Shown here in pieces: positions 7,209 to 49,127 of a stretch of DNA of 49,127 nucleotides. The DNA is from a virus: positions 1 to 49,127 of the IMG/VR virus record IMGVR_UViG_3300045988_124399; one strand, 5' to 3'. Under the pieces are notes generated by a model. That model did no database searches. It was not told where the DNA came from and was given only the letters and a program-made list of their open reading frames with translations. Positions within the stretch are counted from its first letter, which is position 1. Each line of letters begins with the position of its first letter. The position numbers and the translations under genes were made by a program.

Positions 7209-7565
7209 ATGCGTGCTTCAAGAGGAGAAATTAAAATTGAAGAAATCTTAGAAGAAGCAGGACTACCTTTTAAAATGGAATATATCTTTCCAGATTTAAA
7301 AAGCCCAAGCGGGCGTCCGCTTCGTTTTGATTTTGTTATATTTGATGATGATGGAAAAATTGATTTCATTATTGAGTATTAGGGAAAATAGCATTATGAA
7401 GCCAGTTCTAAATTTGGCGGAAAACGCGGTTTATACCAGTAGCAATATAATGATAATCAAAAAAGACGTTTTTGCGCTTTACATGATTTTAGATTAATAG
7501 AGATTCCATATACCGACGAAAACCTTATTTCTTATGATTATATAATGAAATTAGCAGGTTATTAA
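7209..7565 (+). CDS. Small nuclease-like protein (homing-endonuclease / PD-(D/E)XK-like) inserted between terminase and portal
   Basis: 118 aa. AGGAGG precedes the start. Motif RFDFVIFDDDGKIDFIIEYQGKQHY has a D...E.QGK pattern with 3 in-frame TAG. Its position is typical of endonuclease insertions. Confidence 0.35.
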
Positions 7566-10838: not shown

Positions 10839-11756
10839 ATGTTTAAAGACTTTTTGAATAAGAATCTTCCTATTAAGTCTCAGGCAAAGTATGTTGAGTT
10901 TGGTTACGGTCAGGTCGAGCCTAATCACCTTTCCGCACAAAGAAATGCTCAAATCTATGCTCAACTTCCTGCCAATAAAGACATTGAGATTCTTGAAAAC
11001 GGTCAGTTTGTAAAGTATGACTATGCTGCTAATGGTAATGGTATCGGCGAAGTCAACTTCACTGGCGAAGGCGAATGGATGCTCGTTTATAACGAGATTA
11101 AGCTTTATCGTGATCATTATGATGGCAGTAAGCAGTGGGATTGCGAATTTGCTATGATTAAAGATGACTATCAGGCTCGTGTTTATAGCCCTTATGATTG
11201 GGAGCATACCGAGGTTGAATATGGTGGTCGTTTCTGGAACGGCGTTGATGAAAAGGGTCAAACCTATAAGTTAATCAATCAGACTGTTTCCGCAGATCAG
11301 GGCTTAAAGACTGTAACTATTGCTGGTCGTGTTTATGATGTCGATGAAGCCGGCAAGTTTACTTATGATGGTAATGAATATACTCTTGATAGTAATCATC
11401 AGGTTGCTAATGTTCCTGTAAAGTATTACTATGATAAGCTTCTTACTGATGTTCCTGATATGTATGAAATGAATTGGACTAATGATCCATATCATAAGTT
11501 AGGTATCTATCATGAGAAGTTCATGGAATCTGGTACTTCTATGGTTCCTCGTGTATTTAAGACCATGATTGGTGATCTTTATACTACTAATATGATTAAT
11601 GAAGAGACTCTTGCTGTTGGAGATAAGCTTTCTCCTTCTGCTGCTACAAAGGGTATTCTTAGCAAAACTGGCGACGATTCAATGACCTGGCAGGTTGTTA
11701 AGGTTTATACTATGCCTGATGGTCAAAAGGGCGTCAAGGTAATGCGTATTAAGTAA
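10839..11756 (+). CDS. Capsid-associated structural protein (TAG-free, GC3-rich codons)
   Basis: 305-aa uninterrupted ORF with a strong AAGGAGG Shine-Dalgarno. It sits immediately upstream of the capsid gene. It has many CAG/GGT/GCT codons and no TAG. Confidence 0.45.
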   Translation: MFKDFLNKNLPIKSQAKYVEFGYGQVEPNHLSAQRNAQIYAQLPANKDIEILENGQFVKYDYAANGNGIGEVNFTGEGEWMLVYNEIKLYRDHYDGSKQWDCEFAMIKDDYQARVYSPYDWEHTEVEYGGRFWNGVDEKGQTYKLINQTVSADQGLKTVTIAGRVYDVDEAGKFTYDGNEYTLDSNHQVANVPVKYYYDKLLTDVPDMYEMNWTNDPYHKLGIYHEKFMESGTSMVPRVFKTMIGDLYTTNMINEETLAVGDKLSPSAATKGILSKTGDDSMTWQVVKVYTMPDGQKGVKVMRIK

Positions 11757-11773: not shown

Positions 11774-12880
11774 ATGTTAGATAAAAATAATTTAATTGCT
11801 CTTATGAAGCAAGTTGCTAAGGCTGATCCTTCTGCTCCTGTTGCTTATAGTTATGAGGGAAAAAATCTTAGTTATGAAGCCTTAAATGAAACTCTTCGTA
11901 ATGAAATGAATGAGTTGGCTGGCACTTACGCTCTTTATCGTGAAAATAAGAATCTTATTTTCTCTATGATTGAGCAGACTCTTGATGAGGTTCTTCCTAA
12001 GAAAGTTATTCAGCAATATGATCAGTTTGCTGAGGTTAAGACTTTCGCTCAGGGTGATAAGCCTATCTTCCGTCGCCCTCTTAATAATCGTGCTCGTGCT
12101 AAGCAGTTTGTAACTCGCGTTGGTCTTGCTGGTATTTATGAAGTCTTCAAGCTCGGACCTAAAGAGAATGAAGCCTTTGAGGTACGTACTAGCGCTATCG
12201 GCGGAGCTGCTCAGATTGGCTTCGAAGAGTTCCTTGATGGTCGTGTTGATTTCGGTGAAGTAACCAAGATCATCATGGATGGTATGGATGAACTTATTTA
12301 TAAAGAAGTTGCTGCTGCTCTTAGATCTTCTATCAATCAGCTTCCTCCTGCTAACCGCGTTGCGGCTGCCGGATTTGATGAAGCTGCTATGGATCGTTTG
12401 ATCACTATTGCTTCTGCTTATGGCACTCCTACTATTTATTGTACTTATGAGTTCGCTGTTAAGATGATTCCTCATGAGGCTTGGAGATATACTGAAGCTA
12501 TGAAGAACGAACTTTGGAATAATGGTCGTCTTGCTACTTACAAGGGCACTAAGGTTATTATTCTTGAGCAGGGCTTTGAAGATGAAACCAATACTCGTAA
12601 GGTTATTGATCCTGGTTATGCTTGGGTTATTCCTACGGGCGCTGATGGTAAACCTGTAAAGATTGCTTTCGAAGGTGGCACTATTGTTGACGAGTTCAAT
12701 AATTATGACCGTTCTCGTGAGATTCAGGTTTACAAGAAGGTTGGCGTAGTTTGTATGCTTGCTAATAACATCTGTGCTTATGTTGATACTTCACTTCTCG
12801 GTCAGATGTATACTTGGAATTATGATGGAGTCACCGGTAAGGTTGTCACTTATGATGGCCGTCTTGATGGCAAAATCTAA
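11774..12880 (+). CDS. Major capsid protein (TAG-free)
   Basis: 368 aa at the synteny position after portal and scaffold. A strong terminator follows. Codon usage is that of a highly expressed gene (CGT, GCT, GGT, CAG) and there is zero TAG. Confidence 0.55.
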   Translation: MLDKNNLIALMKQVAKADPSAPVAYSYEGKNLSYEALNETLRNEMNELAGTYALYRENKNLIFSMIEQTLDEVLPKKVIQQYDQFAEVKTFAQGDKPIFRRPLNNRARAKQFVTRVGLAGIYEVFKLGPKENEAFEVRTSAIGGAAQIGFEEFLDGRVDFGEVTKIIMDGMDELIYKEVAAALRSSINQLPPANRVAAAGFDEAAMDRLITIASAYGTPTIYCTYEFAVKMIPHEAWRYTEAMKNELWNNGRLATYKGTKVIILEQGFEDETNTRKVIDPGYAWVIPTGADGKPVKIAFEGGTIVDEFNNYDRSREIQVYKKVGVVCMLANNICAYVDTSLLGQMYTWNYDGVTGKVVTYDGRLDGKI

Positions 12881-12966: not shown

Positions 12967-13560
12967 ATGATTAATAATGAAGATATTTATAATGTAAAAA
13001 ATAGAAGCACTAGTGTAGTTGTTTATACTATTCCTGATACTAATTTGCGTCGTGAGTTTGCGCCCGGTGAGACTAAGCGTATTCCATTTGGTGAGCTAGA
13101 GAAGTTAACTTATCAGGCAGGCGGCCGCGAATTAATTGCTAATTTTTTACAAATTTTAGAGCCAGAAGTAACTCATACTCTTAATGTTCATACTGAACCT
13201 GAATATAATATGTCAGAGCAACAAGTTGCTGATTTAATTCTTAATGGCTCATTAGATGCTTTCTTAGATGCTCTTGATTTTGCTCCTATTGGAATTATTG
13301 ACTTAATCAAGAATTTATCTGTTAGCCTTCCTATTACTGATATTAATAAGCGTAGAGCTTTGAAGGAAAAAACTGGGTTTGATGTTGATAAAGCTATTGC
13401 TAATGATATCGCTAGTAAAGAAGAAGATACTATTGTAGAGAAAGAACCCGCTGCTAAGCGCCGTGTAGTAAGAGAAGAACCTACTACTCAAGGTCGTCGC
13501 ACAAGCGGTTCTGGATATAAAGTAATTAATAAAACCGAGGAAACTTCCTCCAAGAAATAA
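12967..13560 (+). CDS. Hypothetical head or neck structural protein (TAG-free)
   Basis: 197-aa uninterrupted ORF. AAAGGAGA precedes the start and the stop is TAA. Confidence 0.4.
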   Translation: MINNEDIYNVKNRSTSVVVYTIPDTNLRREFAPGETKRIPFGELEKLTYQAGGRELIANFLQILEPEVTHTLNVHTEPEYNMSEQQVADLILNGSLDAFLDALDFAPIGIIDLIKNLSVSLPITDINKRRALKEKTGFDVDKAIANDIASKEEDTIVEKEPAAKRRVVREEPTTQGRRTSGSGYKVINKTEETSSKK

Positions 13561-16844: not shown

Positions 16845-17843
16845 ATGAAATTTGGTGTTCGCGAAATTTGCGATGTCGTTTTAAAGGCTAAGGCAACTCA
16901 GAAGGTTGGTAATAAAATCTTTTATAGAAATGAGCCAGTTATTTATTTCGACACTTTAAAAACTTCCAGCATGGAAGGCGCTGCTACCACTGTATATGCA
17001 CAGGGAGGACGCGGTAATGCTCGTTTAGTAGCCTGGGAAGGTGAGCGTACTGTTACCTTTACAATGGAAGATGCTCTTATTTCTCCAGAAGGTTTCATGA
17101 TTCTTTCTGGTGCTGGTCTTGTTGAAGCAAGTGCTACTAGTACTATTAAACAGCACGTTACTGAAACTGTAGATAAATCACAAATTGATAGTACAACTAC
17201 TGAAGGACAAGTTACTATTCGTGTTTCTAAAAAGCCCTATCTTCCAACAGACGAACAAGAGAATTTTGCTTATGTTATGTTTGTCAAAGATGGCGAAATT
17301 ATCACTGAGCCTTTTATTCCTGTCCATGAGGAGTTAACCGCTAAGAAAGATACTAATGGTAATGAATATTTTGAATTAACTCTTAAAACTCCACATGATG
17401 ATTATATTGCTGGTACAGGTAATTATACTTTTAATGAAAAGAACGGCCTTCCAGCGGCTGCAGCATATGATAGTGCTATTGTTGATTATTATACTGAAAA
17501 GGCTAGCGGCGCTCAACAGATTGAGATTACTGCTGATAAATTCGGTGGTAACTATTATCTTGAAGCCTCTACTTTATTCCGTGATCAAAATGGTGTTGAT
17601 ATGCCTGCTGAATTTATTATTCCTAACTGCAAGATTCAGTCTAACTTCACCTTTACAATGGCTTCTTCTGGTGATCCTTCTACTTTCACCTTTACTATGG
17701 ATGCTTTCCCTGACTATACTCGTTTTGACCACAGTAAGAAAGTTCTTGCGGCAATTCAAATTATTGAGGAAGGCGGAGCTAGTGACCTCCATCGTACTAT
17801 GACTGCTCACGACGAGGCTCACAATGCTTCTTTCACTGACTGA
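16845..17843 (+). CDS. Major tail (tube) protein (TAG-free)
   Basis: 332 aa. AAGGAGGA precedes the start. The protein is Thr/Ser-rich and beta-rich. It sits ahead of the chaperone/tape-measure region. It has highly-expressed codon usage and no TAG. Confidence 0.5.
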   Translation: MKFGVREICDVVLKAKATQKVGNKIFYRNEPVIYFDTLKTSSMEGAATTVYAQGGRGNARLVAWEGERTVTFTMEDALISPEGFMILSGAGLVEASATSTIKQHVTETVDKSQIDSTTTEGQVTIRVSKKPYLPTDEQENFAYVMFVKDGEIITEPFIPVHEELTAKKDTNGNEYFELTLKTPHDDYIAGTGNYTFNEKNGLPAAAAYDSAIVDYYTEKASGAQQIEITADKFGGNYYLEASTLFRDQNGVDMPAEFIIPNCKIQSNFTFTMASSGDPSTFTFTMDAFPDYTRFDHSKKVLAAIQIIEEGGASDLHRTMTAHDEAHNASFTD

Positions 17844-18016: not shown

Positions 18017-18022
18017 TTTTAT

Positions 18023-18058
18023 GGGAGAGAATAGAAATATTCTCTCCCATTTTTTTTA
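18023..18058 (+). terminator. Rho-independent terminator
   Basis: GGGAGAGAATA-GAAA-TATTCTCTCCC followed by TTTTTTTT. Confidence 0.75.
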
Positions 18059-18081: not shown

Positions 18082-19188
18082 ATGAATTCATTATAGAGAA
18101 GTATTAAGGCCAGTCCAAGAGAAATGAATACAGAAGATTTTTTAAAGAAATCTTATGAATTTACAAAAAGAAGTATGAGTTAGAAATTAAGAGCAAGAGA
18201 TACTTCTGAAAAACAAGCTAAAAAATTAGAAGAATTCTTTCAAAGTATTCAAAATAGATAGCTTGGAAATCCTATCGAAAATATCCAAATGAGTGAATTA
18301 TTAGATGCTTTAGAATAGATTAATCCTTAGCTTTTTAATTCAATGAAATATTTATTTACTACGCCAGATAACTATGGAGATTCTAATGATGCGCATGGTA
18401 AATATTTTGAAGGGGTTATAGCGGAAGCGGTTGCCACTGCGGAGAATTATTTTGCTGGTAATAAAACTATGACTATAAGTGGAAGTAGTAAAAAGGCTGG
18501 AACCGCATCTGTTAACCTTATAGATTTAGCAAAGGATTTAGATGAAGATACAAAAAATTTAATGAATGATATTTATTAGAAAACTGCTCAAGAAATGAAA
18601 AAAGATAGTGAAGCTGCATCTTCTACAATAAAAGGAGTTTCTGGCAAAGCGGATATTATAGGAATTTAGTAGAATTATACAATATAGAAAACTAGCCATT
18701 TAGAATTAGATGAAGAAATTTATGATGCTTTATTAAATGCTACTTTTACTGCGAAAAATTATATGTCTAACACTTAGATTGAATTAGGATCTACTAATCC
18801 TTTTCGTGTTTTTATGACTATGATTCCTCTTGGAGGAGCTACAAGTAAAATTTAGAGATATTACCGTATGTTGGCTTGTAAATAGAAGCACTTTCCTGAT
18901 AAGCATCCTGATGCACCAAAGTATTTTTATAGATTAAGAGCTATTTATGAATTAACTGGTGGAAAATCTAATTATACTAATACTGTATTAAATAAGCTAA
19001 TAGGTGGAAATTATACTAAATTTTTAGTTTTAAATTTATAGGGACATATAAGAGTTATTCCTACTTAGAGTGTCATAAAAGAGCTTATTGACAATATTGA
19101 TGATGATTAGTTTAATAAAGATATAGATTGGCAAAAGGCTTTATATGGACGTATTAGGATTAATCAAAATAAATTTAGTGAAATTTAA
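18082..19188 (+). CDS. Hypothetical tail-module protein (about 19 TAG)
   Basis: GGGAGAAAGGAGAG lies upstream. Frame 1 is continuous through ORF 18343 to the TAA at 19186. Confidence 0.4.
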
Positions 19189-19190
19189 AA

Positions 19191-19219
19191 TTGACTAAAT
19201 AGAAAATTTTTTGTATAAT
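19191..19219 (+). promoter_or_regulatory. Consensus sigma-70 promoter TTGACT-17-TGnTATAAT
   Basis: TTGACT at 19191-19196 and an extended -10 TGTATAAT at 19212-19219 with a 17-bp spacer. It drives 19247..19780. Confidence 0.65.
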
Positions 19220-19246
19220 ATAATAAAGAGTAAAAGGAGATTAATT

Positions 19247-19780
19247 ATGGCTAAAATTTCATATACTAAATTAGGAATTAGCAAGGAAGAATTGAATAAA
19301 GTTCAGACTGTAGAATATAATGATCAGACTATTGAAGTAAAGCAATATCTTCCAGTTGCAGAAAAGAGTGAATTAATTACTCGTGTATTAAATAATTCTG
19401 TAGATGAAGACAATGGATATTATAATCTTTTAAAGATGGATATGCATCTTGCACTTGAGATTGTTTATGCTTATAGTAATATTAATTTTACAGAAAAGCA
19501 AAAAGAAGATTCAGCGAAGCTTTATGATATGCTCAATGCTTCAAAGGTGCTTAATCTTATTATTGGTCTTATTCCAGAGGGGGAGTTTTATTATTTAAAT
19601 AAGACTGTCCATGAAATGGCTAATAATATTGTAGCTTATCGCAATTCCGCGATGGGAATTATGGAGCGCATTACTACTGATTATAGTAACTTAAATTTTG
19701 ATGCTAGCACGATTCAAAAAGAGCTTGCCGATCCTAATAATATGACTTTATTGAAAGATATTCTCACTAAATTGGGCTAA
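19247..19780 (+). CDS. Putative tail assembly chaperone (TAG-free, own promoter and terminator)
   Basis: 177 aa from MAKISYTK. AAAAGGAGA precedes the start. The protein is helical and acidic. It sits immediately upstream of the tape measure gene. Confidence 0.35.
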   Translation: MAKISYTKLGISKEELNKVQTVEYNDQTIEVKQYLPVAEKSELITRVLNNSVDEDNGYYNLLKMDMHLALEIVYAYSNINFTEKQKEDSAKLYDMLNASKVLNLIIGLIPEGEFYYLNKTVHEMANNIVAYRNSAMGIMERITTDYSNLNFDASTIQKELADPNNMTLLKDILTKLG

Positions 19781-19825: not shown

Positions 19826-19870
19826 GGGGATAAGAGTATTTTATTACTCTTATCCCCTTTTTATTTTTAT
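19826..19870 (+). terminator. Rho-independent terminator
   Basis: GGGGATAAGAGTA-TTTTA-TTACTCTTATCCCC followed by a T-run. Confidence 0.75.
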
Positions 19871-19909
19871 TTTGCAAAGTAAAAATTAAGAGAGAAAGGA
19901 GATTTTTTG

Positions 19910-22900
19910 ATGGCTAAACAATTAAATAGTTATCAAGTTAATTTACAATTTAATGCAAATACTACATAGGCGAAAACGCAATTGCAAGATTTGCAAACGA
20001 CCCTTGATGCTATTATAAAGGAATCTGTGGCGGGAGTCTCTAAAGGAGATTTTAATTTAACTAAAAGATTAAACGAAGCGCAGATAGCAGCATCAAAACT
20101 ACAAACCATTTTAGCTCAAACTACTAATGTAAAAACGGGAAAAATGGATTTAACAAGATTTTCTCAATCTTTAAAATAGAGTAATTTAGATTTAAAAAAG
20201 ATATAGAATAGTTTACTTGAACTTGGACCTTCTGGGCAAAAAGCTTTTATGTCTTTAGCTCAATCTATTGTTGAAGCTGATGTTCCATTAAAAAGAACAA
20301 ATTTATTAGTTTCTGAATTATGGACAACTTTAAAGAATACAGCTCGTTGGTAGATTTCTTCTAGTGCATTGCATGCATTTATGGGTACTATTCAATCTGC
20401 TTATGGATATGCCAAAGATTTAAATGAATCTTTAAATGATATTCGTATTGTTACTGGACACAATATTGAATATATGGATAAATTTGCTGAAAGAGCAAAT
20501 AAAGCGGCGAAAGCATTAAATGCTACTACATTAGATTACACTAATGCTTCTTTAATTTACTATCAATAGGGTTTAAGTGATGAAGAAGTAGAAAAAAGAA
20601 CAGATATTACTGTTAAAATGGCTAATGTCATTAAACAAAATGCTGATATTGTTTCTGATCAATTAACTGCGATTTGGAATAATTTCTATGATGGCTCTGA
20701 CTCTTTAGAACATTATGCTGATGCGATGGTGCGCTTAGGTGCAGATACCGCGTCTAGCTCTGATGAAATTGCTGGTGGTCTTGAAAAATTTGCGGCAGTT
20801 GCTAATACAATTGGTTTAAGTTTTGATAATGCAGCAGCTGCATTGGCTACTATTACTGCTACAACTCGTCAAAGTGAAGATGTAGTAGGTACTTCTTTAA
20901 AGACTATTTTTGCTCGTATTCAAGGTTTAAAATTAGGCGAAACCTTAGAAGATGGCACCACTTTAAATCAGTACTCACAAGCTCTTGCAGCTGTTGGAGT
21001 TAATATTAAAGACTCCAATGGACAATTAAAGGATATGGATATCATTCTTGATGATTTGGGACACAAATGGTCAACAATTAGTAAAGATCAATAGGTAGCT
21101 TTAGCTCAACAAGTAGCTGGTATCCGTCAATACAACCAATTAATTGCTTTAATGGATAATTTTGATTTTTATCAAGAAAATATTCAAAGAGCAAAAGAAG
21201 CAGATGGTTCTTTACAAGAACAAGCTGATATTTATGCTGAAAGTTGGGAAGCTGCTCGTGATCGTGTGCGTGCAGCAGCCGAAAGCATTTATGATGATTT
21301 GATTAATGATAAATTCTTTATTAGTTTGTCTGATGCGATAGCAGGAGCTTTAGATGCTATCGATAAATTGATTAGTTCTATAGGAGGTCTTCCGGGAGTA
21401 ATTGCAGCTCTTGGAATGATATTTACTAAAGTGTTTAAAGTTCAAATGGGCGAGGGCGTTAATAATTTAGTTTTTGGCCTTTAGTCTTTAGTTGGACTTA
21501 CAAAAAAGAGTGCAGTTTCTCTTAAACAAGAAGCTTATAATCGAGCTTCTAATATGGCTTTTGATACTGGTACTGAAGTTGGAGATAGATAGGGAGAATC
21601 ATTAAAATAGACTTTAGACTTAAAGAAAAGAATATATGATATATCTGAAAATATTACAAAAGAGGAAAGACAATAGCTTGAAGGGTTAATTGAAATTAAT
21701 CGAGCTTATAATGAACAGGCTATAAAAGCAGCTCAAAAAAAAGATTAGGCTAGTGAGAATCTTCAAAATACTCGCATGGATCTTAGAGCGCGCATAAGAA
21801 GAAATTCTGCCACTGGAAAAGTAGAAAAAAATTTAAATACTTTTGGAAATGTTCAATAGCAAATGGGTGGAATTATTAAAACTGGTTTGCGAGGAACTAA
21901 AGCTTTAGATAGACTTAATAAAGCATTAAAAGAAGGAAGTCCATTAGGAAAAGCTTTTGAGGGCAGAATAAATACAATTCAGCAGGCTTTAATTAAAGTA
22001 GATAGATCTGAAGCAGCTGAATCTATTGGAAATTTTGTTGAAGAATTAAAAAACGGAACTATAACAGTAGATTAGTTCTTGAAAAAAGTAAATAATGTTG
22101 TCACTAAAGAAAATTTAATGGCTGATGCTACATCCAAAGCGGCAGCTATTCTTGAGGATGACTTTGGTAAAAAAGTTAAAATTAACGGCGAGGAATGTCA
22201 AAAGCTTGCTGAAGATATGACTGAAGTTATTGTAACAACAGATAAATTAAAAACTACTAATAAGCAAGTTGCTGGGTCTTATGAAAAAATAAAAGCTGCA
22301 ATTGAAAATTATAAAAATGCTACTGGAGATTTAGGGTAGAAATTAATTTCTATGGTTAATGGTTTTTCTTCATTGGCTATGGGATTGGCTTCCATTAAGA
22401 GTATTTTTGATACTTTATCTGATGAAGATATGTCATTCTTTGATAAACTTTTATCAGTTAGTATGTCTTTAGGCATGGGTATTTCTATGACCGTTTCTGG
22501 CTTATCTACTATGGCTAAAGCCTATAAAGAATTGGCAGAAGCTAAAACTTTAGATAATATAAAGACTTCGATTAATACTGCTATTACAGAGATTAATAAT
22601 CTGGTAAAAGCTTAGGCGGCCGCCAGAACAGGAACTCAAACAGTAGCTACAGATAGATAGGCATTGGCTGAAAGCAAACTTACAAAAAATATAATATTGT
22701 AGAATGCTGCCTATTTAGTCCGTAATACACAGATGTCTGCAACAGCAGCTTTTGGATTAAGTTTAGCTGGTACTATATTAGCTGTAGTTGCAGCTGCAGC
22801 GGCTTTAGTGCTTATATCTAAAGCAGTTTATAATTCTATTCATAAAGAAGAAATAGCGGCTGAAGCAGCAGCCAAAGCGGCTTCAGATCTTGGTAATGCT

Positions 22901-25900
22901 TATGATGAGTGTCGTGAAAAGTATCAGCAAATGATTGATGAGTTTAATGAATACAAAGATGCTATAGATGCTTTGGATAATTTAACTAAAGGAACTCAAG
23001 AATATCGTGATGCTTTAGACGAGGCTAATCAAAAGGCTTTAGAATTAATTCAAAATAATCCTGATAAATTTAATAAAGATGATTATTATTGGGATGATAA
23101 TAAATTAGTTATTAAAGATACAGCTATGTCTCGTGTAGCTGAAGCTAGTAGACAAGAGACAGCGGATTTATAGGCTGCTTCTGCTATGGCCAATGCCAAT
23201 AATGCTCAGGCATAGGCAAATTTGCAGAAAGAAAATCTTACTGATATTGTTAAGAGTTCTTTGCGTAACACAGGTAATGTAAATAAATCTATTGATGCTT
23301 ATTTAAATAGCGATAGAGTTGCTGTTGATAAAGAAGACTTAAAAGATATTCTTAATCTTGATAATGGTATAGACGATAAGGCTTTAGTTAATGTCCTTTG
23401 GCGCAATATTGATGCTTTAAATGAGTTAAGAAATACTATGGATGGGGTTGAAACCTCTTTTGATCTTGCTAGTAAAACCGCAGCAAGAGCGCAATGGTCT
23501 GGTTCTGGTAAAGAAAATACTAAAGCTGGAAAAATGGCGCTTGAAGGTGGCGGAAGATTATATAATAATCTTTATGCTGAGGGAGAAAATACTGTTAAAG
23601 GTTATTCATTAGACGCTAATTGGGCTGCCTATGAAAAAATGAATAATTTGAATTCTCTAAAAGGATATAAACGTTCTATTAAAAGCGATAAAGTTGAATA
23701 CAGTTATTATGATGAGAATGGTGAAAAGATAACTTAGGAAATCAATAAAGAAGCTATTCAAATCGCGGCCGCAACCCGATATGCTAATGATAGAATTGGA
23801 GAAGCTTTAGATAGCTTATATCAAAATATTGCTAAAGCTAATAAAGATGGCCTTGATAGTGTAGGGAAATATTTATCAACAGAAAATTTTGATAATATGA
23901 CAAAAGGCGAGCTTGAACAATTTTAGGGATTAACTGATGATTAGTTAAAAGAATACGGAATTGATAAACAAGCTATTGAAGAAGCTAAGAAAGTTGTATT
24001 TGATGAAATTGATGGTCTTAATGAAGCTATGAGCGATTAGATCACTGTTGGAGTGAATAAGACTTTAAAAGAAAATATTTAGAATTTTGGCTCTGAAGGT
24101 AAAGATGCCTATATTAGTGCTATCAATCAAATTGGTGAATTTATTGATTGGAATGCTTTGTCTCCAGAATCCTAGGCTGAAGCTTGGAATAAAATTTCTA
24201 ATATTAATTGGTTTGATTTTGATGCTCAACGTCAAGCTGAAACTCTAATTAAAGAAATGGGCGGAGATGTTTCTGTTCTTGGAGATAATTGGGATAAAGC
24301 TTTTAGCTAGATGCGCAAAGCTGGAGATGTCGTTCCAGTATTAACTGATATCAAAGAACGCCTTGATAAAATAGATAATATTACTAAAGATATGAAAATC
24401 GGTAAGATTTTAGAAAAAGAAGATTATGATACTTTAGTAAATTATAATAGTGAATTGGCAAGATATTTTGCTATTTTATCTGATGGGTCTGCTGTTTTTG
24501 TAGGTGATCCTCTTGATTTCCAGTAGATGGTTAAATCCACTAAGTAGGATGAATTAAGTAGAACTATAAATGGATACCAAAATATTATTGATTAGTATTA
24601 TGCGGGGGCTGAAGAACTTAAAAAAGCGGGTGGATTAGATTAGATTCGAGAAGTTGGGTCTGAAAATGTTAATAATCAGTTAGCGTTTTTAAAGACTTAG
24701 AACTATGATGAAACATAGATTTCTGATTGGACTGGTAAGCTTGCTAATTCTAGAGGATAGGATATTGACACTTTAAAAGCTATTGCTGAAGCAGTTAATG
24801 AAGTTGGTAATTCTTTCTTATCTAGCAAAGATAGTATAGAACAATATACAGCAAGTAGTCAATAGGCTATGAATGAATTGGCAATGACCGCCGAAACTGC
24901 TCAAGAAGCAGAAGAAATGCTTAAAAATGGTAGTATCAATGAAATAGCTTATAATATGAGTGCTATATAGCGTATGTCTAGTGAAAAATGGGAAAATTTA
25001 GATTCATCTGAAGTAAATAAATATGCAGATTCTTTAATGAAGACAGCTAAAAGTTCTAAATTATTAAGTGATGAACTTGTAAATAATAAAGAGGCTGCTG
25101 AAGATGTAGCTCTTTACACTATGAAAATGAATAATGGTGTAGAGAAATTGAAAAATGGCTTTAGCGGATGGGCTGACGTATTAACGAAATCTGATTCTGC
25201 TTCACAAGAATATTATGATGCAATGGTTGATATTAAAGATGCCATGTCTGATGTGCTTGGGGTTTCAGAAGAATTTTTAACTGATGAGTTTATTACTAAA
25301 AATTTAACTGATATAGGCAAGGCTGCAGAAGGCGATGCTGATGCTATAGATCGTTTGGCCGCTGCGGCAAGTAAAGATATTCTTTTAAATGTTGATTTTG
25401 TTTAGGATAATAAACAATTACAAGATGTTTTATTATCAATGCATGATAAATTAGCGGCGGAAATTCCAGATATAAAAATTGGTACAACTTTTGAAGGTCA
25501 AGATGATTTAATTAGATAGGCTCAAAACATTATCGGCACAGCAAAAATGACTGCTGAATAGGCAAATGCTTATTTTAGTGCCATGGGTTTTGAAACTAAA
25601 TTTAAAGTTGAACCTCAAAAGATGGAATAGAAAACCCCGGTAGTACGTTCTAGATAGACAATAGTTGGAGCGGGATTTGATGAACACGGAGCTCCCTATT
25701 GGGAAACAACAACAGAAACTTGGAATGATGGATATAGCATTCAAACAGGTTATGTCGATGCTATTGCTATGGCGACCTCTCCTGATGGAACAAAAACTCC
25801 GATTATTGAAAGTATGACTAGTAAGCCTACTGGAATTATGAATAATAGTTCAAAAGCTAATAGAGGTACTACAGGCTCAAGTAAAGGCGGAGGAGGAAAT

Positions 25901-28828
25901 AAAAATAAACCAACCAAGGGAGATTTAACTAAAAAAAGCGATGTTGTTGATCGTTATAAAGAAATTACTGATAGCATCAATGATACCACTCGTGCTTTAG
26001 ATAAGGCTAATAAATCGGCAGATAGACTTTGGGGTAAAGCCCATCTTGATGCGATGGCTAAAAGTAATAAATTAACTTTAAAAGAAATTGATTTATTAAA
26101 ACAAAAGCAAAAAGAGGCTTAGGCTTATCTAAAGACAGATAAAGTTACTTTATAGCAAGCTGCGAAAGAAGCTGGAATTACTTTCACATTTGATGAAGAT
26201 GGTGACATTTCTAATTATACTGATTAGATGACTAAACTTTATAATTAGCTCATAGCTGCTTAGAATAAAGCAAATTCTTTTTCTACAAAAGATGCTCAAG
26301 ACGCTTATAAAGAAGCAACTTTAGATCCGATTCAAGAGAAAATCAATAAGTTGAAAGATGCTATTAAGCAATATGAAGATACAAGAGATTTAGTCGAAGA
26401 ATTAACTGATGATATCCAAGATAAAATAAACGAATGGCAAGATAAAAATTATCAAATGCTTACTTATGAAGTTGAAATAAAGGTTCAATTAGATGAAAAT
26501 GATACTAAAAAATTAGAATATTATTTTGATAAATTAAGTGATAATATTTATAAAGCCGCTGAAGCTCTTGGATATTTACAAGGTCAATTTAATCCAGTAA
26601 TTAGTCAATTAGGAACTTATGAGAATTTCTATAGTCAGTTAAACAATGCTTATTCTAATGGAGAAATTTCTCAAGAAAATTATATCGAAGGCTTACAAGA
26701 CGTGTATGATAATACATTAGATAATTTAAATGCTTTGTAGGATTTAGATAAAGAAATGCTTGAATATTATGGTAATACTATAGATTTAGCAAATGATGAA
26801 TTGTCTAAATATACAGATCATATGGAGCATTTGACTAGTGTATTGGATCATTATCGTTCTATTATTACTTTGTTAGGTAAAGATAAAGATTATGATAAAG
26901 TTTTATCAGTTTTAAATGGAACTGCTTAGACTAAGAAAAATAATTTTGATACTTCTAAACAATGGTATGAAAGCTTGAAGCGTGAACGTGATGCAGCAGC
27001 TGCGGCTTTAGCCAGTTCAACTGATGAGGCTGAGCGCGAAGTGCTTCAAAAGAATTATGATGCTATATTAGCTGCATTCGATGAAGCGGAAGAGGATATG
27101 CTTTCTAAAGCTGAAGAATATGGTGAAGCATTAAAAGAAATTCTTACTATAAAGATGGAACAAGCTGCGGATGAAATGAATAAGCAATTGAGCACTACTA
27201 AAGTAAGTATTAATGGTAATAACTTTAATATTTCCGGTTGGGATGCTTTAAATGATGCTTTGGATAGAATGTCTTCTTATCAAGATGAATACTTAACAAA
27301 AACTAATTAGATTTATGAAATGAATAAACTGCTTAATAATGTTAATTAGGCTATTGATAAGACAAATAATCAAGCAGCTAAAAATAGATACCAGCAATTT
27401 ACTAAAGAAATTGAATAGTTAAGAGATAAAGATAAATTAAGTCAATTAGAATTAGAAATTGCTTAGGCTAAATATAAAGTGCTTGAAGCGCAAATCGCAT
27501 TAGAAGAAGCTCAAAACGCAAAGTCTACAGTTAGATTACAACGTGATAATGAGGGTAATTTTGGTTATGTGTATACCGCGGACCAAGAGAAAGTAAATGA
27601 TGCGCAATAGGCTTTGGCGGACGCGGAAAATGATTTATATAACATTCGCCTTGATGCGACAAATAAATATGGTCAACAAAAACTTCAATATGAGAAAGAG
27701 TTGGCTGACAAACTTGCGGAGCTCGATTAGAAAGCTGCGGAAGATGCCGTTTACCGCGAGACCGCTTATCAGCAAGAACGCGCTTTAGTAATTCAACAAT
27801 ATACTGATTTAATTACTACTGCTGGAAACCTTTATGCGAAAGCGCAAGAAGAGGATAGCAGAGTTGTTCAAGATGCTTGGGTAAATTCTTTTGATATTAT
27901 CAAAGATAATAGTAATAGTTGGAAAGATACTATTACTGAAAACACTAATATTATCAATGATACATTTAAAGAATGGCAAGACAGTATGGATGAAATTAGT
28001 AAAATTGTTGGTGATGATTTAAAAGATACTCAATAGAAAGTTAAAGATGTTACTGATGAAAGTAATAAACTTTATCAAGAAGTATCTAATAAAGTTATCC
28101 CCGCTCTTGAAGGTGAGTTAAGTTCCGTTCGTAGTGCCACTGAAGCTTGGGCACAACATCGTCAGCAATTACTTGATACTATTAGAGCTTATGAAGAGCT
28201 TTTGAACGCTATTCAAGCGACATTGCGCGCTTAGAGCGGATTTGGTAGCGATAGTGGTGGAGACACTGACTGGGCGGCCATGATGGGCACTGTGGCTTAT
28301 GGTTCCGCGCAATATAATCAATATAAAAGAAATCGTGAAGAAAAAATTGCTAATGGTGGTAATATCAATGAAGATACTACGGCTCGAGTTGATGCATATT
28401 ATAAATTGCTAAGTGAAGGAAAAATTTCTGGTAAACTTCCTAATGGTAAATATAGTTTTACTTAGCTTACTGATTAGGAATGGAGAGATTTAGTCGGATT
28501 TAGAAGTGGTGGTTATACTGGCACTTGGAATGATGACGGAAAATTAGCGTTCTTACATTAGAAAGAATTAGTTCTTAATTCTGATGATACAGAAAATATG
28601 TTAGCTTCTATCCAATTAGTTAGATAGATCGCAAAACAATTAGACTTCAATAGTCAACAAATCTCTACTCTTTCTTCTTCTGGATTTACTGTTAGTTCTC
28701 AAGATGGAACATTAGAATAGAATGTTAGAATTGAAGCTAGTTTCCCGAACGCTACTGATAGATACGAAATTCAAGAAGCATTTAATACATTAGTTAATGT
28801 AGCTTCTCAGTATGCCAATAGAAAATAA
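19910..28828 (+). CDS. Tail tape measure protein, 2972 aa (about 60 in-frame TAG)
   Basis: All 15 track ORFs from 19982 to 28280 share frame 2. The only interruptions are TAG, with no TAA/TGA over 8.9 kb. The protein has coiled coils, hydrophobic segments (22350-22830) and a Gly/aromatic C-terminal motif GGYTGTWNDDGK. The stop is TAA. Confidence 0.85.
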
Positions 28829-28834
28829 AATTAA

Positions 28835-28870
28835 GGGTGAAGTCTTATAGGCTTCACCCTTTTTCTTTTT
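28835..28870 (+). terminator. Rho-independent terminator after the tape measure gene
   Basis: GGGTGAAG-TCTTATAG-GCTTCACCC followed by TTTTTCTTTTT. Confidence 0.75.
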
Positions 28871-28943: not shown

Positions 28944-31900
28944 TTGGCTGATAACGCACTAAATATTCAAGAAAGTTTATGTCAAGCAATGAGTATTATT
29001 GCTAATTCAAGTGTTGATAAAGTTAAATTTGATAGTACCATTGAATGTACTATTATTGATGCCATTGACAAACTTATTGGTAAGTATAAGGTTAAAAATG
29101 AATCTTATGCTGAATTTTATGCTTATTCCCAAATAACCACTTATAACAAAGGCGATAAAGTATATGTATAGATCCCAAAAGGAGACTATAATAGCACTAA
29201 ATTTATTGTCGGTAAAAAGACAGATAAAAATGAAGATAAACCATATAATTTTGTCAATCCTTTTAATACTTTTATTGATTTAACTGGCAATTTTTTTATT
29301 GCCAAAGACAATAATAAAGAAGTTTGGAGCATCTTAGCCAATGGTAATGAAGAGGAAATTGAGATTACTCCAAATGGCGGAATTACCTTTACTGATGAGC
29401 AATAGGGATTTACGCGGTTGGGGCTGCGTGTCGATTTCCGTGCCTGGCTTGAAACGCTCGGTGTAGTAAGTGGTAATTATGGATTAAAATTAAATATATA
29501 TGGTATTAAAGATGATACTGCGGACAATATTAAAAAAATAGAAAATAGTATTAAAAATAATGGAGAAATCCCTTTAATTGCATCTATTGATTTAGATACT
29601 AATGATATGTATGGCAATCCTTATAATTTTGAAGGATATTATTCTCAAGAAATTGTTATTGATACTAGTGCAGTAGCTAAAATATATAATATAAAAATAT
29701 TTTTATATCAAAAAGGTAATTTTAAAGATAGTAATAATAATTTAATTAGTTATGCCAATGATTTCAATATGTCAATTCCGCCTAATAATATCTTTGTAAA
29801 AGATATATATATGGGACTAGGTATTTCTGCGGATGAAATAGAAAATGAATATGTAAGATTATATTCATTGGATGGAAGTACTTATGTAATTGACGATAAG
29901 GGTTAGATTGATTCTAAAACTATTAAATTGAAATGGGTTCATTTTGATGAAGATGGCAATAGAACTCAAATAACTGAACATAAAAAAGATGATGCTTTTG
30001 AAGTTCGTTGGTATATGTATGAATTTGGAGCACCGTCCGCGGATGAGTATTCTGGTGTCTATTGGACAACGATTAAAGATAATAAGAATAATTTTTATTA
30101 TTAGTTAAAACCGCGCTCCAATAAAAATCAAGAATAGATCAAAGTCATTATTTTATATAATGGAAAAATTTATAGAAGTAATATAATTACTTTTAATAAT
30201 GAAAAACAAGTTCCTAATGATGCAACTATTGATAGTTTAAATGCTTTATCTATTCATTGTGAAGATTAGACTAATGGTAATTATTTAATTTATAATTAGG
30301 CTAACTACTTAATGAATAGATCAGATGGAAAAATTAGTCGTAAATTAACTTTACATTTTGATTCTAAGACTTATGCTATTAATAATGGTATAATTGGTAA
30401 GAATTAGGATGGAGAAAGTAAATTAGTTGAAGCTTAGAGAGTAATTTGGTAGATTCCTATTAAGAATACCATGCTTAATTTTGGCGTTAAAGATGATGGA
30501 ATTGATGCTACTTACAAAGAAATTATTATTGATTTAACTAATGAAAACGTCAATGTTTCCCCTGGAGAATTTTCTTTAAATTATACTATTAATACTTTTT
30601 ATAGTAGTAATAAATCTAATAATACTGTAATTGCTAAAGTAGAAAAAGATGGTATTGTTTATACCGCCATTAAAGATTTTACTTTTGGATAGGCAGGAAC
30701 TAATGGTACTGACTGTACTTTAGTAATTGATATGATAGCTCATGAGAATTTAAATAATAAAGTATTTACTGCTATAAAGAGTGGGGTAAGAGATAATTAT
30801 ACTTTTAGAGCTTAGTTATATGATAATGAAGGCAAGGAAATTACCAATTTTGAAAAATGTAATTGGACTTGGAGTTTTATGTCTGGATCAAATACTAATA
30901 ATATTGAATTAGGAAATACTGAGAATTAGGACTGTATATTAAGAGTTAATACTACAAATTCTATAATGAATAATTTAATTATTTTATAGGTAAAGTTATC
31001 TGGTTGGGGAGATTACGATTTAACTGCTTATTATCCAGTTCCTATTACAACTTTAGATAATATTTATATAAATGGTCCAACAGAGGTAATCTATTTAAGT
31101 AATGGCGAACCTACATTTTCTAAAGAGCCTTATAAATTATTTATAAATGGTGAAATAGATGAAACTGCGACTTGGAGTATTTATCCCACTGGATCTACTG
31201 ATAAGTTTATTGGGTAGATTAAATATAATGATAAGAAAAAAGAATATAGATTAAGCCCTATGAATTTTTATGTTGATGGTGTAAGCATTTATGGAGTTCA
31301 AGGAAAATAGGGAAGTAATATTGTTTGGAGTCAACCTATTTTAGTCATACAAAATAAATATCCATCAGCAATGGTAAACAAATGGGATGGATAGTTAAAT
31401 ATAGATAGTGATAATAATTTTATCGGCGTTGCTTAGATCGCGGCCGGTAAAAAAGAAAATAATAATACATTTACTGGCGTTTTGATGGGGTCTTTTGGTG
31501 ATAGTAAAGCTGATAGTAGTCTTAGTAAAAATACTGGAGTTTATGGATATTATCAAGGTAAATAGGTTTATGCTTTAAAAGATGATGGAACTGCTACATT
31601 TGGTAAATCTGGGAATGGACGAATTACAATTAATGGAAGTACTAGTTAGATAAAATCTGAAGGATATGATAATGGTAATGGTCTTTTAATTGATTTAAAA
31701 GAAAGCAAAATAGATGGTAAAAGTAATAATTATAGTGCTTTTTTATTAAATAAGTCTAGTCCATATTTAACAATTCAAGATCCTGTTAGTAATACTACTT
31801 TAATGAATGTAGGAGATAATAGTTACTATTTAAAATCTAAAAATTATACCTCAGATGGAACTACAGGAATGTATATAAATTTAAATGATGGTTCTATTAC

Positions 31901-32378
31901 TGCTAATACTGGTAAATTTAAAGGTGATATTATAATTAATTATACTGGTAGCACGGGTGATGGATGGACTTATGGCGATCGAAGTTTAAGTTATATTTTA
32001 AATTAGATTGGAAAAGCAGCTAAAGAAGCTGGTGATCTAGCAGAAAGTTCTATTACATGGACTAAAGATTTAGCACAAGCTTAGAATGATATTGAGTATG
32101 CTTTAAATGGAATTTCAAGTACTGTTAGTATGTTGGATCAATTTTTTGAAATTGGCACTTCTATCGACTCTGAAGGATACGTGCATTATGGACAACGCCC
32201 ATCTTTTGTGAGTCCTCTCGGTGGTTCTGTCGCAGTAGGTTCTGGTGTATAGATTACAGGAGATAGAATTATTATAGGAAATAATCGAAGTTCAGTAAAC
32301 TTTTAGAGTGCTACAATATATATTACTGGAAGTACAACTTTAGAAGAATATATTAGGCAAATCGCTGGCGTTAATTAA
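28944..32378 (+). CDS. Distal-tail / baseplate protein, 1144 aa (TTG start, many TAG)
   Basis: AGGAGGG lies 6 nt before the TTG. ORFs 28944, 29418, 30471 and 31803 share frame 0. The gene is immediately downstream of the tape measure gene. Confidence 0.45.
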
Positions 32379-41063: not shown

Positions 41064-42725
41064 TTGAACGTTAAATTTTTAAAAGGCTCTCAAGCCGAAT
41101 TTGAAAAGGTGGCAGGTAGATATAAACCTGGTGCGTTTTATTTAGTAATTAATGATAATAAATCCGCCAAAGACTATAAAAAGCCAAGTCGTCTTTATTA
41201 TGGCGTAGATGAAAATAATTGTGTTCCTGTAAATCAAGGTATTAATGTAGTTGATACTACCGCAGGTTTACCCCAAAGTTCTACTCAAAACACTGCTGGT
41301 GAATTTTATTATGTAAAAGATAAAAATATTTTATGTATTAATAATGGTAAAGGTTGGATTCAAACTAATACCGATACTGTTTTAGATACTAGTAAAAAAA
41401 ATAGTAATGTATCAGTAAATAGTAATCCTGAAAAACCTAATGGAGTTTCTATAACTAATACTATTGCTGATAGTAGTGGTAATATTATTACTGAGACTTA
41501 TGATATTATAGGTAGCGATTATATCCAAATTGAAGCAGTTCCCGCTGTTGATGATAAAGGTGTAGACACTGTTAAATTGAGTTTAAAAGGAATTAATTAT
41601 CAGTTAGGTTCTTCTTTAAAGGAAAAAACTTTAAATGTTAATTTAAAGAATGCTGATACTGATGTAGGTAATTTTAATATTATCGCTGGTAGTAATGTTA
41701 ATATTGCTGAAACTTCTACAGGAAATTATACTTTAAGCGTAAATAAAGCTGTTGATAGCATTGATATAGTTAATCATGTTGGTGGCACTGGTTTTACTGC
41801 TTCTATTAGTGGTCCGGGTGTTGAAGGAGCTGGTAACGGTACAACCTTATCTGCTGATATCGATCCAGAAATTGCTTTAGAAGGTAAGACTGGTAGCTAC
41901 AAATTTAAAGATGGTGTTTTAACTCTTCCTGTTTATAGTAAGCAAGATATTGATAATCAACTTAGAACCATTAATGCTATGGTATTCCGTGGCGGATTCC
42001 AAGTTAAAGATGGAGCTATTGCCTATGATAATTCTGATATTACTGAAATTACTGAAGGTAATACTTTTATTTACACTGGAGCCGAAGACACACTTTGGAA
42101 TGGTCATTATTTACGTCCTGGTGATCTAATTATTGCTTCTGGTGAAGAAGTTAATGGGGCTATTACTGGTACTATTAATTGGACCTATGTTCCTTCTGCC
42201 GATGACCCTGTTACTGAAGTTGAAGGAGCCAATGATAATAGTACTGCTGGTTTTATCATTAAACTTGGTTCTACTAAAAAACTTTTAGATTATGCTCTTA
42301 ATGGTGAAAGTGGTATTGTTTTAGAAACAGAAGTTTTAACAGATTCAAAAGGTCAACCTACTAATTCTAAAGTCGTTACTATTAAACATAGTAATACTTT
42401 AACTGTAAATGATCCAGTTCCTTTAGAATATGCAGATGAACAAACTATTACTATTAATGAGCCAACTGAAATTGATGCTCAAGGCCATGTAGTAAAATCT
42501 ACTCAAAAGACTTTTACAATAAAAAATACTCATCAAGAGATTGGTAATGCAGATTATACAGTAAATGGTACTGATACTTTAATTCCTAACCTTAAAGTTG
42601 CCGGTGCTGATCTTGAAGGTAAACCGCTTGTTTTCGCCAGTAATAGTCTAAAGGTTAATGTTTCCGCAGCGACTGCGACTGATAATGCTAAAGTTAATTT
42701 TGAGTTAGAGTGGGGAACATTCTAA
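41064..42725 (+). CDS. Fibre / receptor-binding-type protein, 553 aa (TAG-free, TTG start)
   Basis: AAAGGAGTG lies upstream. It shares the N-terminal module KFLKGSQAEFEKV...GAFYLV. It has zero in-frame TAG. Confidence 0.45.
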   Translation: MNVKFLKGSQAEFEKVAGRYKPGAFYLVINDNKSAKDYKKPSRLYYGVDENNCVPVNQGINVVDTTAGLPQSSTQNTAGEFYYVKDKNILCINNGKGWIQTNTDTVLDTSKKNSNVSVNSNPEKPNGVSITNTIADSSGNIITETYDIIGSDYIQIEAVPAVDDKGVDTVKLSLKGINYQLGSSLKEKTLNVNLKNADTDVGNFNIIAGSNVNIAETSTGNYTLSVNKAVDSIDIVNHVGGTGFTASISGPGVEGAGNGTTLSADIDPEIALEGKTGSYKFKDGVLTLPVYSKQDIDNQLRTINAMVFRGGFQVKDGAIAYDNSDITEITEGNTFIYTGAEDTLWNGHYLRPGDLIIASGEEVNGAITGTINWTYVPSADDPVTEVEGANDNSTAGFIIKLGSTKKLLDYALNGESGIVLETEVLTDSKGQPTNSKVVTIKHSNTLTVNDPVPLEYADEQTITINEPTEIDAQGHVVKSTQKTFTIKNTHQEIGNADYTVNGTDTLIPNLKVAGADLEGKPLVFASNSLKVNVSAATATDNAKVNFELEWGTF

Positions 42726-48800: not shown

Positions 48801-49127
48801 TAGACTTCTGACTGACACTAAAACAACTCTTGATCCAGAAAGAAAATCTTATTATAGAGATAATGGACATTTTTAGTTGGTAGCTATTCCAAAAGATTAG
48901 GTTAATAAAATAACAAAATCTGATATTAAAAATAATTAGATTTATTATTTAGATACAATAAATGGAGACAATAATAATCATAGTATAATAACTGATTATA
49001 ATTTATTAATTGATATTTATAATAATTATAGGGGTCTTAATACTAATAAGCCAGAAATATCTGGTGTTATGTATATAAAAAATAATAATTAGATTGATGA
49101 ATCTATTATCTAGAATGAGTTATAGGA
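42844..49127 (+). CDS. Giant fibre / host-interaction protein, more than 2094 codons, open to the window edge (dozens of TAG)
   Basis: Track ORFs 42844, 43693, 44890, 45721, 46522 and 47227 all sit in frame 1. Hand reading of every gap found only TAG, never TAA/TGA, out to 49127. The N-terminal module RFRPVQGPEEKI...DGYFYVATDTGRVYL is shared with the two upstream genes. Confidence 0.6.

Follow-up and report, generated by a model that had tools for sequence, protein, structure and literature searches.

The gene at positions 19910..28828 on the + strand of IMG/VR virus record IMGVR_UViG_3300045988_124399, which we analyzed over its positions 1 to 49,127 (49,127 nucleotides, hereafter the window), very probably encodes the tail tape measure protein (TMP) of an uncultured large siphophage from the gut, with a virion module of the kind found in SPbeta, the Enterococcus VRE9 phages and phAss-1, and with the codon TAG read as glutamine (Gln). 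The gene is one continuous frame of 2,972 codons closed by TAA, contains 60 TAG codons read as Gln, and would encode a protein of ~330 kDa.

Open Reading Frame and Genetic Code

Direct counting across the 8,919 nt of the frame (2,972 sense codons and the terminal TAA) returned 60 in-frame TAG, no TGA and no internal TAA, where base composition predicts ~191 TAA or TGA; the probability of such a frame remaining open by chance is therefore ~1e-83, and the remaining two + frames across the same interval contain 133 and 450 TAA/TGA. An earlier note on this DNA had described one uninterrupted frame of 2,972 codons with about 60 sense TAG codons, and had allowed that an internal TAA or TGA might split it; the recount bears out the frame, fixes the number of TAG at exactly 60, and found no such stop. 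The TAG codons are distributed evenly (6-14 per 500 codons), the first being codon 20. The start is ATG 19910, preceded at a distance of 8 nt by a ribosome-binding site, AAAGGAG (19895..19901, +), and the product begins MAKQLN, as does the family consensus.

Comparative evidence indicates that TAG is a sense codon throughout the window, equivalent to Gln (genetic code 15). When open reading frames (ORFs) of 100 aa or more are counted, coverage of the window is 50% with the standard code, rising to 90% if TAG is made a sense codon and to 60% if TGA is; in-frame TAG is carried by the terminase large subunit (TerL), portal, TMP and tail genes, and TerL, the portal and most tail genes are restored only when TAG is sense. 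In strains L004-L006, whose TMPs are 96-97% identical to that of the window, all aligned differences at TAG codons are to CAG or CAA, in both directions, and the three codons share columns of the wider family alignment, including columns 148 (32 CAA, 8 CAG, 2 TAG), 220 (21 CAA, 9 CAG, 13 TAG) and 2567 (24 CAA, 3 CAG, 10 TAG). At the columns that hold TAG in the window, no residue is more frequent in 12 standard-code relatives than Gln, at 21% versus a background of 6.5% (~3-fold), and a 99% identical fragment in the public protein database is already translated with Q at the TAG positions. An apparent pairing of the TAG at 2118 with an invariant Tyr was traced to an alignment shift, and vanished in a larger family alignment. 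The published relative phAss-1 encodes three tRNA-Sup-CTA genes, which have been assigned to Gln (Babkin et al. 2023, PMC10607447).

Were the TAG codons genuine stops, the region would represent a decayed or fragmented gene, or several short genes. This is how the DNA appears to ORF calling under the standard code, which gives fragments only, and how GenBank presents the related region of phAss-1, split into 17 small hypothetical proteins; the window, moreover, has no visible suppressor tRNA. We consider the proposition effectively refuted, given the complete lack of TAA and TGA where ~191 are expected, the homology of the frame from end to end with intact standard-code TMPs, the swapping of CAG and CAA with TAG in near-identical strains, and the fact that treating TAG as sense also restores TerL, the portal and other essential genes of the window. 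As the first TAG is codon 20, no functional TMP would be produced without active amber suppression. This requirement is common to most late genes of the genome and is not peculiar to the TMP, and the suppression dependence of late genes in recoded phages has been discussed previously (Borges et al., bioRxiv 10.1101/2021.08.26.457843).

Assignment as a Tape Measure Protein

Translated with TAG as Gln, the protein matches PF10145 (PhageMin_Tail) at aa 197-404, with 94.5 bits relative to a cut-off of 33.2, and TIGR01760 (tape_meas_TP901) at aa 157-501, with 99.6 bits relative to a cut-off of 28.8. Seven PHROG tape measure families also match, including PHROGs 4211, 34405 and 28. The gene lies 3' of the tail tube gene and 5' of distal-tail and tip genes, in an order that is collinear with a 134-kb metagenomic relative (L002) and with Enterococcus phage VRE9_4. 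The two curated family models, the PHROG matches and synteny thus agree in predicting a TMP of TP901 type, and the tape measure label of the earlier note holds on each of these grounds.

Protein Architecture

Conservation along the protein was profiled in a 43-member family alignment, as identity per 50-aa block. The N-terminal domain (aa 1-500; 19910..21409, +) contains both the PF10145 and TIGR01760 matches, is conserved at 38-76% per block, and is predicted to be compact and all-alpha. The AlphaFold model of a 99% identical proxy (P0001) gives a compact all-alpha N-domain of many short helices, with core pLDDT of 84-97, and is all-alpha across aa 79-~650; a Foldseek search with the N-domain model found no match to a PDB fold, designed helical repeats coming closest at E = 0.08. 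Three hydrophobic segments are confined to the first third of the protein, at positions kept in 43/43 family members: segment 1 (aa 487-505; 21368..21424, +) with a nearly invariant GGLxGV; segment 2 (aa 847-865; 22448..22504, +); and segment 3 (aa 951-969; 22760..22816, +), the strongest (Kyte-Doolittle 2.5), which has an equivalent in each family member. The hydrophobic segments mentioned in the earlier note are therefore both real and positionally conserved.

A hypervariable, indel-rich middle follows (aa ~550-1950; 21557..25759, +), in which block identity in the family alignment falls to 5-29% and gaps reach 77%. We take this region to be the adjustable 'ruler'. It contains no domain matches, and neither tandem nor internal repeats, such that repeats were dismissed as a cause of TMP length. 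A Gly-rich linker, GTTGSSKGGGGNKNK (aa 1986-2000; 25865..25909, +), is conserved in the family and divides an N-part of ~217 kDa from a C-terminal module of ~111 kDa.

The C-module (aa 1998-2972, ~975 aa; 25901..28825, +) is delimited by the family alignment and by collinearity with the C-terminal 1,029 aa of the VRE9_4 TMP. Its block identity is mostly 26-46%, with a low of 19% at aa 2801-2850 and peaks at aa 2501-2550 and in the last 120 residues. The AlphaFold model of the proxy (P0121, 92% identical, covering the 692 aa from 2281 to 2972) has low confidence (pLDDT 60.5); helix makes up 77% of it, and it has three short beta-hairpins. One of these predicted hairpins is formed by the internal element conserved most strongly, TVRLQRDNEGNFGYVYTAD (aa 2540-2558; 27527..27583, +). 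Close to the C-terminus lies a motif of the form GGYTG...G(K/R)LAxLHQKELVLN..DTEN (aa 2859-2906; 28484..28627, +), which is common to TMPs of large Firmicute siphophages of the SPbeta, Tsamsa, Sundance and PMBT69 types. The Gly-rich C-terminal motif pointed out in the earlier note corresponds to this element: SGGYTGTWNDDGKLAFLHQKELVLNSDDTEN (aa 2866-2896) is almost invariant across the family, and the motif is 60% identical over 48 aa to that of SPbeta-type YomI. Across the TMPs of the SPbeta group, Tsamsa-like phages, Brevibacillus phage Sundance and Lactococcus phage PMBT69, identity is 39-60% over ~45-65 aa, while the C-terminal region matches that of a C. botulinum D-1873 phage at 37% over a longer stretch of ~105 aa. 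Helical character is thus found in the modeled C-terminal 692 aa and in the N-terminal region of the TMP, together with conserved hydrophobic segments.

The earlier note had proposed annotation of lytic domains, and here the outcome was negative: no peptidase or transglycosylase was found in the window TMP by Pfam, NCBIfam, PHROGs or PDB sequence search. The Pfam scan of this TMP and of 11 standard-code relatives returned PF10145 only, and the PDB sequence search returned no solved relative. As far as profile methods reach, the TMPs of this clade appear to be without an enzymatic domain. Two DxDxD strings were considered as signs of an RNA polymerase like that of Thermus phage P23-45, and were judged to be chance occurrences in Asp-rich helical sequence, with no domain support.

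The TMP might nonetheless be more than a ruler, with a diverged cell-wall hydrolase or nucleic-acid enzyme hidden in the middle region or C-module. There are precedents for such fusions in SPbeta YomI, which carries SLT (1425-1533) and M23 (1579-1674) domains, and in P23-45 gp96, in which a virion RNA polymerase is fused to the TMP. A stretch that appears non-helical and richer in Gly and Pro (aa ~1890-1985) lies directly ahead of the Gly linker, and its relative position matches that of the YomI enzymes, the ~975-aa C-module is conserved well past the needs of a spacer, and the middle region lies outside the structure models. We consider a hidden enzyme improbable, however, as searches of Pfam, NCBIfam, PHROGs and the PDB with the window TMP and 11 standard-code relatives recovered nothing beyond the TMP N-domain, the C-module, where modeled (692 aa), is 77% helical, its hairpins all being short, aa 1890-1985 are poorly conserved (12-25% identity), and the two DxDxD strings sit in Asp-rich helical sequence. 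A more speculative, and to us doubtful, reading is that the C-module behind its Gly linker could be a separate ejected unit that replaces the missing lytic domains.

Length of the Protein and Predicted Length of the Tail

At 2,972 codons, the TMP is long by the standards of tape measure proteins in general. Its length is nevertheless about the median of its own family and well within published values, and the 'exceptionally long' of the earlier note does not stand. A scan of IMG/VR recovered at least 299 relatives, from which 80 loci were retrieved, 70 of these with a complete TMP frame; the complete frames range from 2,678 to 3,404 codons (median 2,902). In two further loci (L029 and L046), the frame is still open at 3,879 and 3,861 codons, respectively, where the retrieved DNA ends, so that the upper size limit of the family exceeds 3,860 aa. 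Five contigs carry essentially the same gene, at 2,968-2,974 codons and 93-98% amino-acid identity. Longer TMPs are found in phAss-1 and its two relatives, which are also TAG-recoded (3,149, 3,150, and 3,209 aa; PMC10607447), in Tsamsa, for which a 3,123-aa TMP accompanies a measured tail of 440 nm (PMC3903500), and in P23-45, with a 5,002-aa TMP and a tail of ~800 nm (bioRxiv 10.1101/2022.12.01.518664).

Scaling from calibrated relatives, it is a reasonable inference that the phage would have a flexible, non-contractile tail of ~420-475 nm. The 2,972 aa correspond to ~419 nm at the 0.141 nm/residue of Tsamsa, 446 nm at the classical 0.15 nm/residue (1.5 A), and 475 nm at the 0.16 nm/residue of P23-45, and the several hundred nanometers proposed in the earlier note are in line with this range.

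Virion Module and Neighboring Genes

The virion genes of the window are ordered as a sigma-like gene, TerL, an HNH endonuclease, the portal, head genes, tail genes, the TMP, and large tail-tip or fiber genes. Those between 10839 and 19780 are collinear with L002 at 47-88% identity, and the L002 products carry Pfam families named for SPbeta virion proteins, namely YonD, YonB, YomW, YomV, and YomU_Tube. Labels for the neighbors of the window TMP were transferred via orthology to L002, since the neighbors themselves gave no match in the copy of Pfam used, which lacks the recent Yom*/Yon* families. The PHROG families of the window module recur, in unchanged order, in Enterococcus phage VRE9_4 (134 kb, standard code), and no sheath-like gene was detected among the window genes. 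Owing to this collinearity, to the Yom and Yon families, to the PHROG order shared with VRE9_4, and to the lack of a detectable sheath-like gene, we would place the phage among the large siphoviruses, in the SPbeta / Enterococcus-VRE9 / phAss-1 assemblage.

The putative tail tube gene (16845..17843, +) is of YomU type, matches PHROG 2729, shares 66% identity with its L002 counterpart, in which PF27173 (YomU_Tube) is present, and contains no TAG. Directly 5' of the TMP lies a gene for a 189-aa protein (19211..19780, +; phrog_30570), a candidate assembly chaperone, whose orthologue in L135 has a weak YomO match only. Directly 3' of the TMP is a gene for a 1,144-aa protein (28944..32378, +), which contains 24 TAG and is 27% identical over ~1,000 aa to the gene that follows the TMP in L002. 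PHROG and Pfam returned no family match for this protein, for which a role in the distal tail or the tip is presumed.

A terminator scan located a hairpin with a 13-bp stem and a T-run between the 189-aa gene and the TMP (19826..19857, +), and another of the same design 5 nt past the TMP stop (28833..28861, +). A third strong terminator-like hairpin follows the tube gene (18021-18050; 13-bp stem, T-run). The region contains 11 such sites, relative to 5.5 expected from shuffled sequence. Their function is putative; transcription may drop at these hairpins, from a high level for the abundant tube protein to a lower one for the low-copy TMP.

A second giant gene begins at ATG 42844 and is open to the window end at 49127, with 18 TAG so far. 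It has ~2,581 codons in a 98% identical strain (L085:1-3020), pieces of it match PHROGs 24896 and 14959, both of unknown function, and VRE9_4 has a 2,572-aa gene at the equivalent place. Between the tube gene and the 189-aa gene, an ORF of 368 codons (18082-19188) carries TAG more densely than any other gene of the window (15 TAG, which supply 68% of its Gln codons). This ORF has no PHROG or Pfam match and no detectable similarity to the L002 gene of the same size and position, where neighboring genes are 47-88% identical. Further upstream, a small HNH/homing-endonuclease gene (7209-7565; 118 aa; PHROGs 9084 and 559) is located between TerL and the portal, and a sigma-factor-like gene (3165-4220; phrog_5767, E = 3.5e-54) heads the late-gene block just 5' of the packaging genes; the product of the latter has a Cys-rich C-terminal tail that resembles HNH or Lar zinc fingers.

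Proposed Mechanism of Tail Assembly

All 60 TAG codons would have to be read by an amber-suppressor tRNA-Gln. By analogy with established TMP biology (lambda gpH, TP901-1, T5 pb2), we propose that a few copies of the TMP would be extended in the lumen of the tube during assembly and set tail length. The C-module, with its GGYTG/LHQKELVLN motif, would be anchored in the tail-tip complex, the start point of assembly, from which tube subunits would polymerize along the TMP up to its N-terminal end. On infection the TMP would be expelled, and the three hydrophobic segments may help to form a channel across the host membrane.

Several points weigh against this account, or against parts of it. Neither the 49-kb window nor the 13 kb that follow it in a near-identical strain contained a visible suppressor tRNA, although phAss-1 has three Sup-CTA tRNAs; as related contigs are 68-196 kb long and the scan covered the window plus those 13 kb, the decoding machinery is one that we infer. 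The frameshift of tail assembly chaperones was looked for 5' of the TMP, and neither an overlapping extension frame nor a convincingly placed slippery site was found after the 189-aa gene. Siphophage morphology follows here from homology to siphophages, the phage being known from genes alone. The helical, ruler-like character of the middle ~1,700 aa was judged from composition and from the lack of domain matches, and, if the N-terminal ~300 residues are as compact in the virion as they are in AlphaFold, the nm-per-residue rule would slightly overestimate tail length.

A different arrangement, in which the mature tape measure consists of two polypeptides with separate jobs, a ~217-kDa N-part and a ~111-kDa C-module, generated by cleavage in the linker or by partial termination and readthrough, also needs to be considered. 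In favor of it, both the linker and the boundary between the modules are conserved, and the TMP of Tsamsa ran as bands of ~280 and ~100 kDa from virions, for which its authors suggested instability as the cause (PMC3903500). In addition, three relatives have one extra in-frame stop that leaves halves of 1,580-1,655 aa and 976-1,542 aa, and that of L135 falls just inside the C-module; the three sites are not homologous, however, and correspond to ~aa 1495, 1805, and 2030 of the window protein. In the window itself the frame is continuous, TAG is a regular sense codon, and neither a protease site nor an internal start was identified in the TMP. A single polypeptide is hence our preferred reading, and a two-piece tape measure seems unlikely.

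The extra stops merit description in their own right. They are a TAG at L002:14954, a TGA at codon 1581 in L134, and a TAG at codon 1656 in L135, in each case a stop type that is not otherwise sense in that locus. Gene callers split the TMPs of L002, L134, and L135 at this single codon, and the frames are otherwise continuous. A single read error is ruled out for L002, as the cluster of its N-half has 11 member sequences. Loci L077-L082, the TMP genes of which are of equal length (3,236 codons), were considered as an explanation of the single TAG in L002, but are not close relatives. The extra stops may reflect readthrough, a true two-piece TMP, or the sporadic appearance, in the longest gene, of codons that need a suppressor.

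Glutamine Codon Usage and Three Genetic Codes

TAG accounts for 17-68% of Gln codons in most genes of the window, and for 32% in the TMP. Six genes are without TAG (10839-11756, 11774-12880, 12967-13560, 16845-17843, 19211-19780, and 41064-42725). In three of these, 10839-11756, the capsid-type (YonB-like) 11774-12880 and the tube (YomU-like) 16845-17843, CAG makes up 45-83% of Gln codons, while it is almost absent elsewhere. The split recurs in ~25 diverged TAG-recoded relatives, in which the same three genes have 0-3% TAG and 57-78% CAG among Gln codons, versus 24-44% TAG and 7-10% CAG in the remaining virion genes of the comparison. Codons that depend on a suppressor thus seem to be avoided in abundant virion proteins, with TAG otherwise filling the niche of CAG.

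A bolder, and in our estimation doubtful, extension is that the heavy TAG load constitutes a dosage or timing device within the virion module, whereby decoding by suppressors would throttle and delay low-copy proteins and leave bulk proteins independent of suppression. It builds on the observation that, in the window and in ~25 diverged recoded relatives, the most abundant virion proteins (the capsid, a 305-aa head protein and the tube) have virtually no TAG and retain CAG for Gln, and that low-copy ones, the TMP among them, have TAG at a quarter to half of their Gln codons and almost no CAG. Under such a scheme, the terminator-like hairpins around the TMP gene would add to the throttling.

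Codes differ across the family. Of 81 loci, TAG is recoded in 55 and TGA in 5, while 21 keep the standard code or nearly so; one homologous virion module and TMP family is consequently maintained under three genetic codes. In the TMPs of the 5 TGA-recoded loci there are 9-27 in-frame TGA, few TGG and no TAG; TGA-recoded members of the family are L050, L053, L058, L059, L062, and L135.

Closest Relatives and Host

The nearest published systems are phAss-1, BK046881_ctckW2, and BK025033_ct6IQ4, phages of the human gut that have genomes of ~133-138 kb and decode TAG as Gln, for which the genus Phassvirus, within a 'Caudoviricetes code 15 clade', has been proposed (Babkin et al. 2023, PMC10607447). 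As in the window, their TMP genes contain many TAGs, and the N-domain and most of the C-module are homologous; the alignments span 33-61% of the query at ~24-28% identity, and the window TMP is shorter by ~180-240 aa. When the phage collection was searched with the TMP gene by Megablast, no nucleotide match was returned, whereas the three Phassvirus members share 80-86% nucleotide identity (PMC10607447). The window phage accordingly lies outside the proposed Phassvirus and would represent a different genus or a deeper lineage. In GenBank record OQ749652.1 (phAss-1; L001:5585-13465), the 3,149-aa TMP is annotated under the standard code as 17 small 'hypothetical protein' coding sequences, some of them on the wrong strand.

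Cultured relatives are found among the Enterococcus phages VRE9_1-4, EF1, EF5, and H1, which have genomes of 134-142 kb, use the standard code, and infect E. faecium and E. faecalis. The 2,673-aa TMP of VRE9_4 has the same two-module layout, with alignment to the N-domain at aa 21-519 and of the C-module at 1998-2972 versus 1645-2673 (1,029 aa), and a second giant gene of ~2,570 aa likewise lies downstream of it. Overall, the Enterococcus phage TMPs are 22-27% identical to that of the window and ~300 aa shorter. Searches of the literature library used found no electron microscopy of the VRE9 and EF1 phages.

The SPbeta group (Spbetavirus, Bacillus subtilis), whose members, like the window phage, are read as large siphophages with long tails, shares with the window a TP901-type N-domain in YomI (2,285-2,295 aa) and the 48-aa GGYTG/LHxKEL(V/I)LN motif (60% identical), as well as, via L002, the YonB, YomW, YomV, and YomU families of its virion module. 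Unlike the window TMP and its family, YomI (2,295 aa) carries SLT (1425-1533) and Peptidase_M23 (1579-1674) domains; it lacks the ~975-aa C-module save for the short motif, is read with the standard code, and is ~680 aa shorter. Because the SLT and M23 domains are missing from it, we do not file the window TMP as YomI-type, despite the N-domain and motif held in common.

Bacillus anthracis phage Tsamsa is likewise a giant Firmicute siphovirus with a TMP of ~3,000 aa, and provides the best length calibration (0.141 nm/residue; PMC3903500). The C-terminal motif is shared with the Tsamsa-like phages Thrax4 and KoopaTroopa; likeness to this standard-code group, compared via the Tsamsa-like phages, is restricted to the motif and N-domain. 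Thermus phage P23-45 gp96 resembles the window TMP in being a giant TMP with membrane segments, and marks the upper bound of known TMP size, but is 1.7x longer, has an N-terminal virion RNA polymerase and a metallopeptidase domain, and shows no detectable homology.

The 44/44 matches in the bacterial genome collection (L090-L133) are contigs from metagenome bins, many of them 120-164 kb long. Their bin labels are inconsistent, ranging from Clostridia, Bacilli, and Mollicutes to Bacteroidales, Treponema and even Methanobrevibacter. Most likely, these are whole phage genomes mis-binned into metagenome-assembled genomes, which makes bin taxonomy unusable as evidence of host. For phAss-1, a host among the Clostridia was suggested by its authors.

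Conclusion

Recoded TMPs of ~3,000 aa, and cultured relatives with TMPs of 2,700-3,100 aa and tails of 440 nm, have already been published, and as a gene the present TMP is biologically nothing new. It does illustrate how annotation under the standard code shreds an essential 9-kb gene into fragments, as exemplified by the GenBank record of phAss-1, and it joins the window to a large family of gut phages, with at least 299 contigs in IMG/VR, many of 100-200 kb, SPbeta-like virions and predicted tails of more than 400 nm. More useful leads are the occurrence of three codes in one module, the pairing of a TAG-loaded TMP with TAG-avoiding capsid and tube genes, and a TMP that appears to lack the lytic domains of SPbeta; of greater interest than the length of the TMP are the split in glutamine codons and the coexistence of three genetic codes within one phage family.

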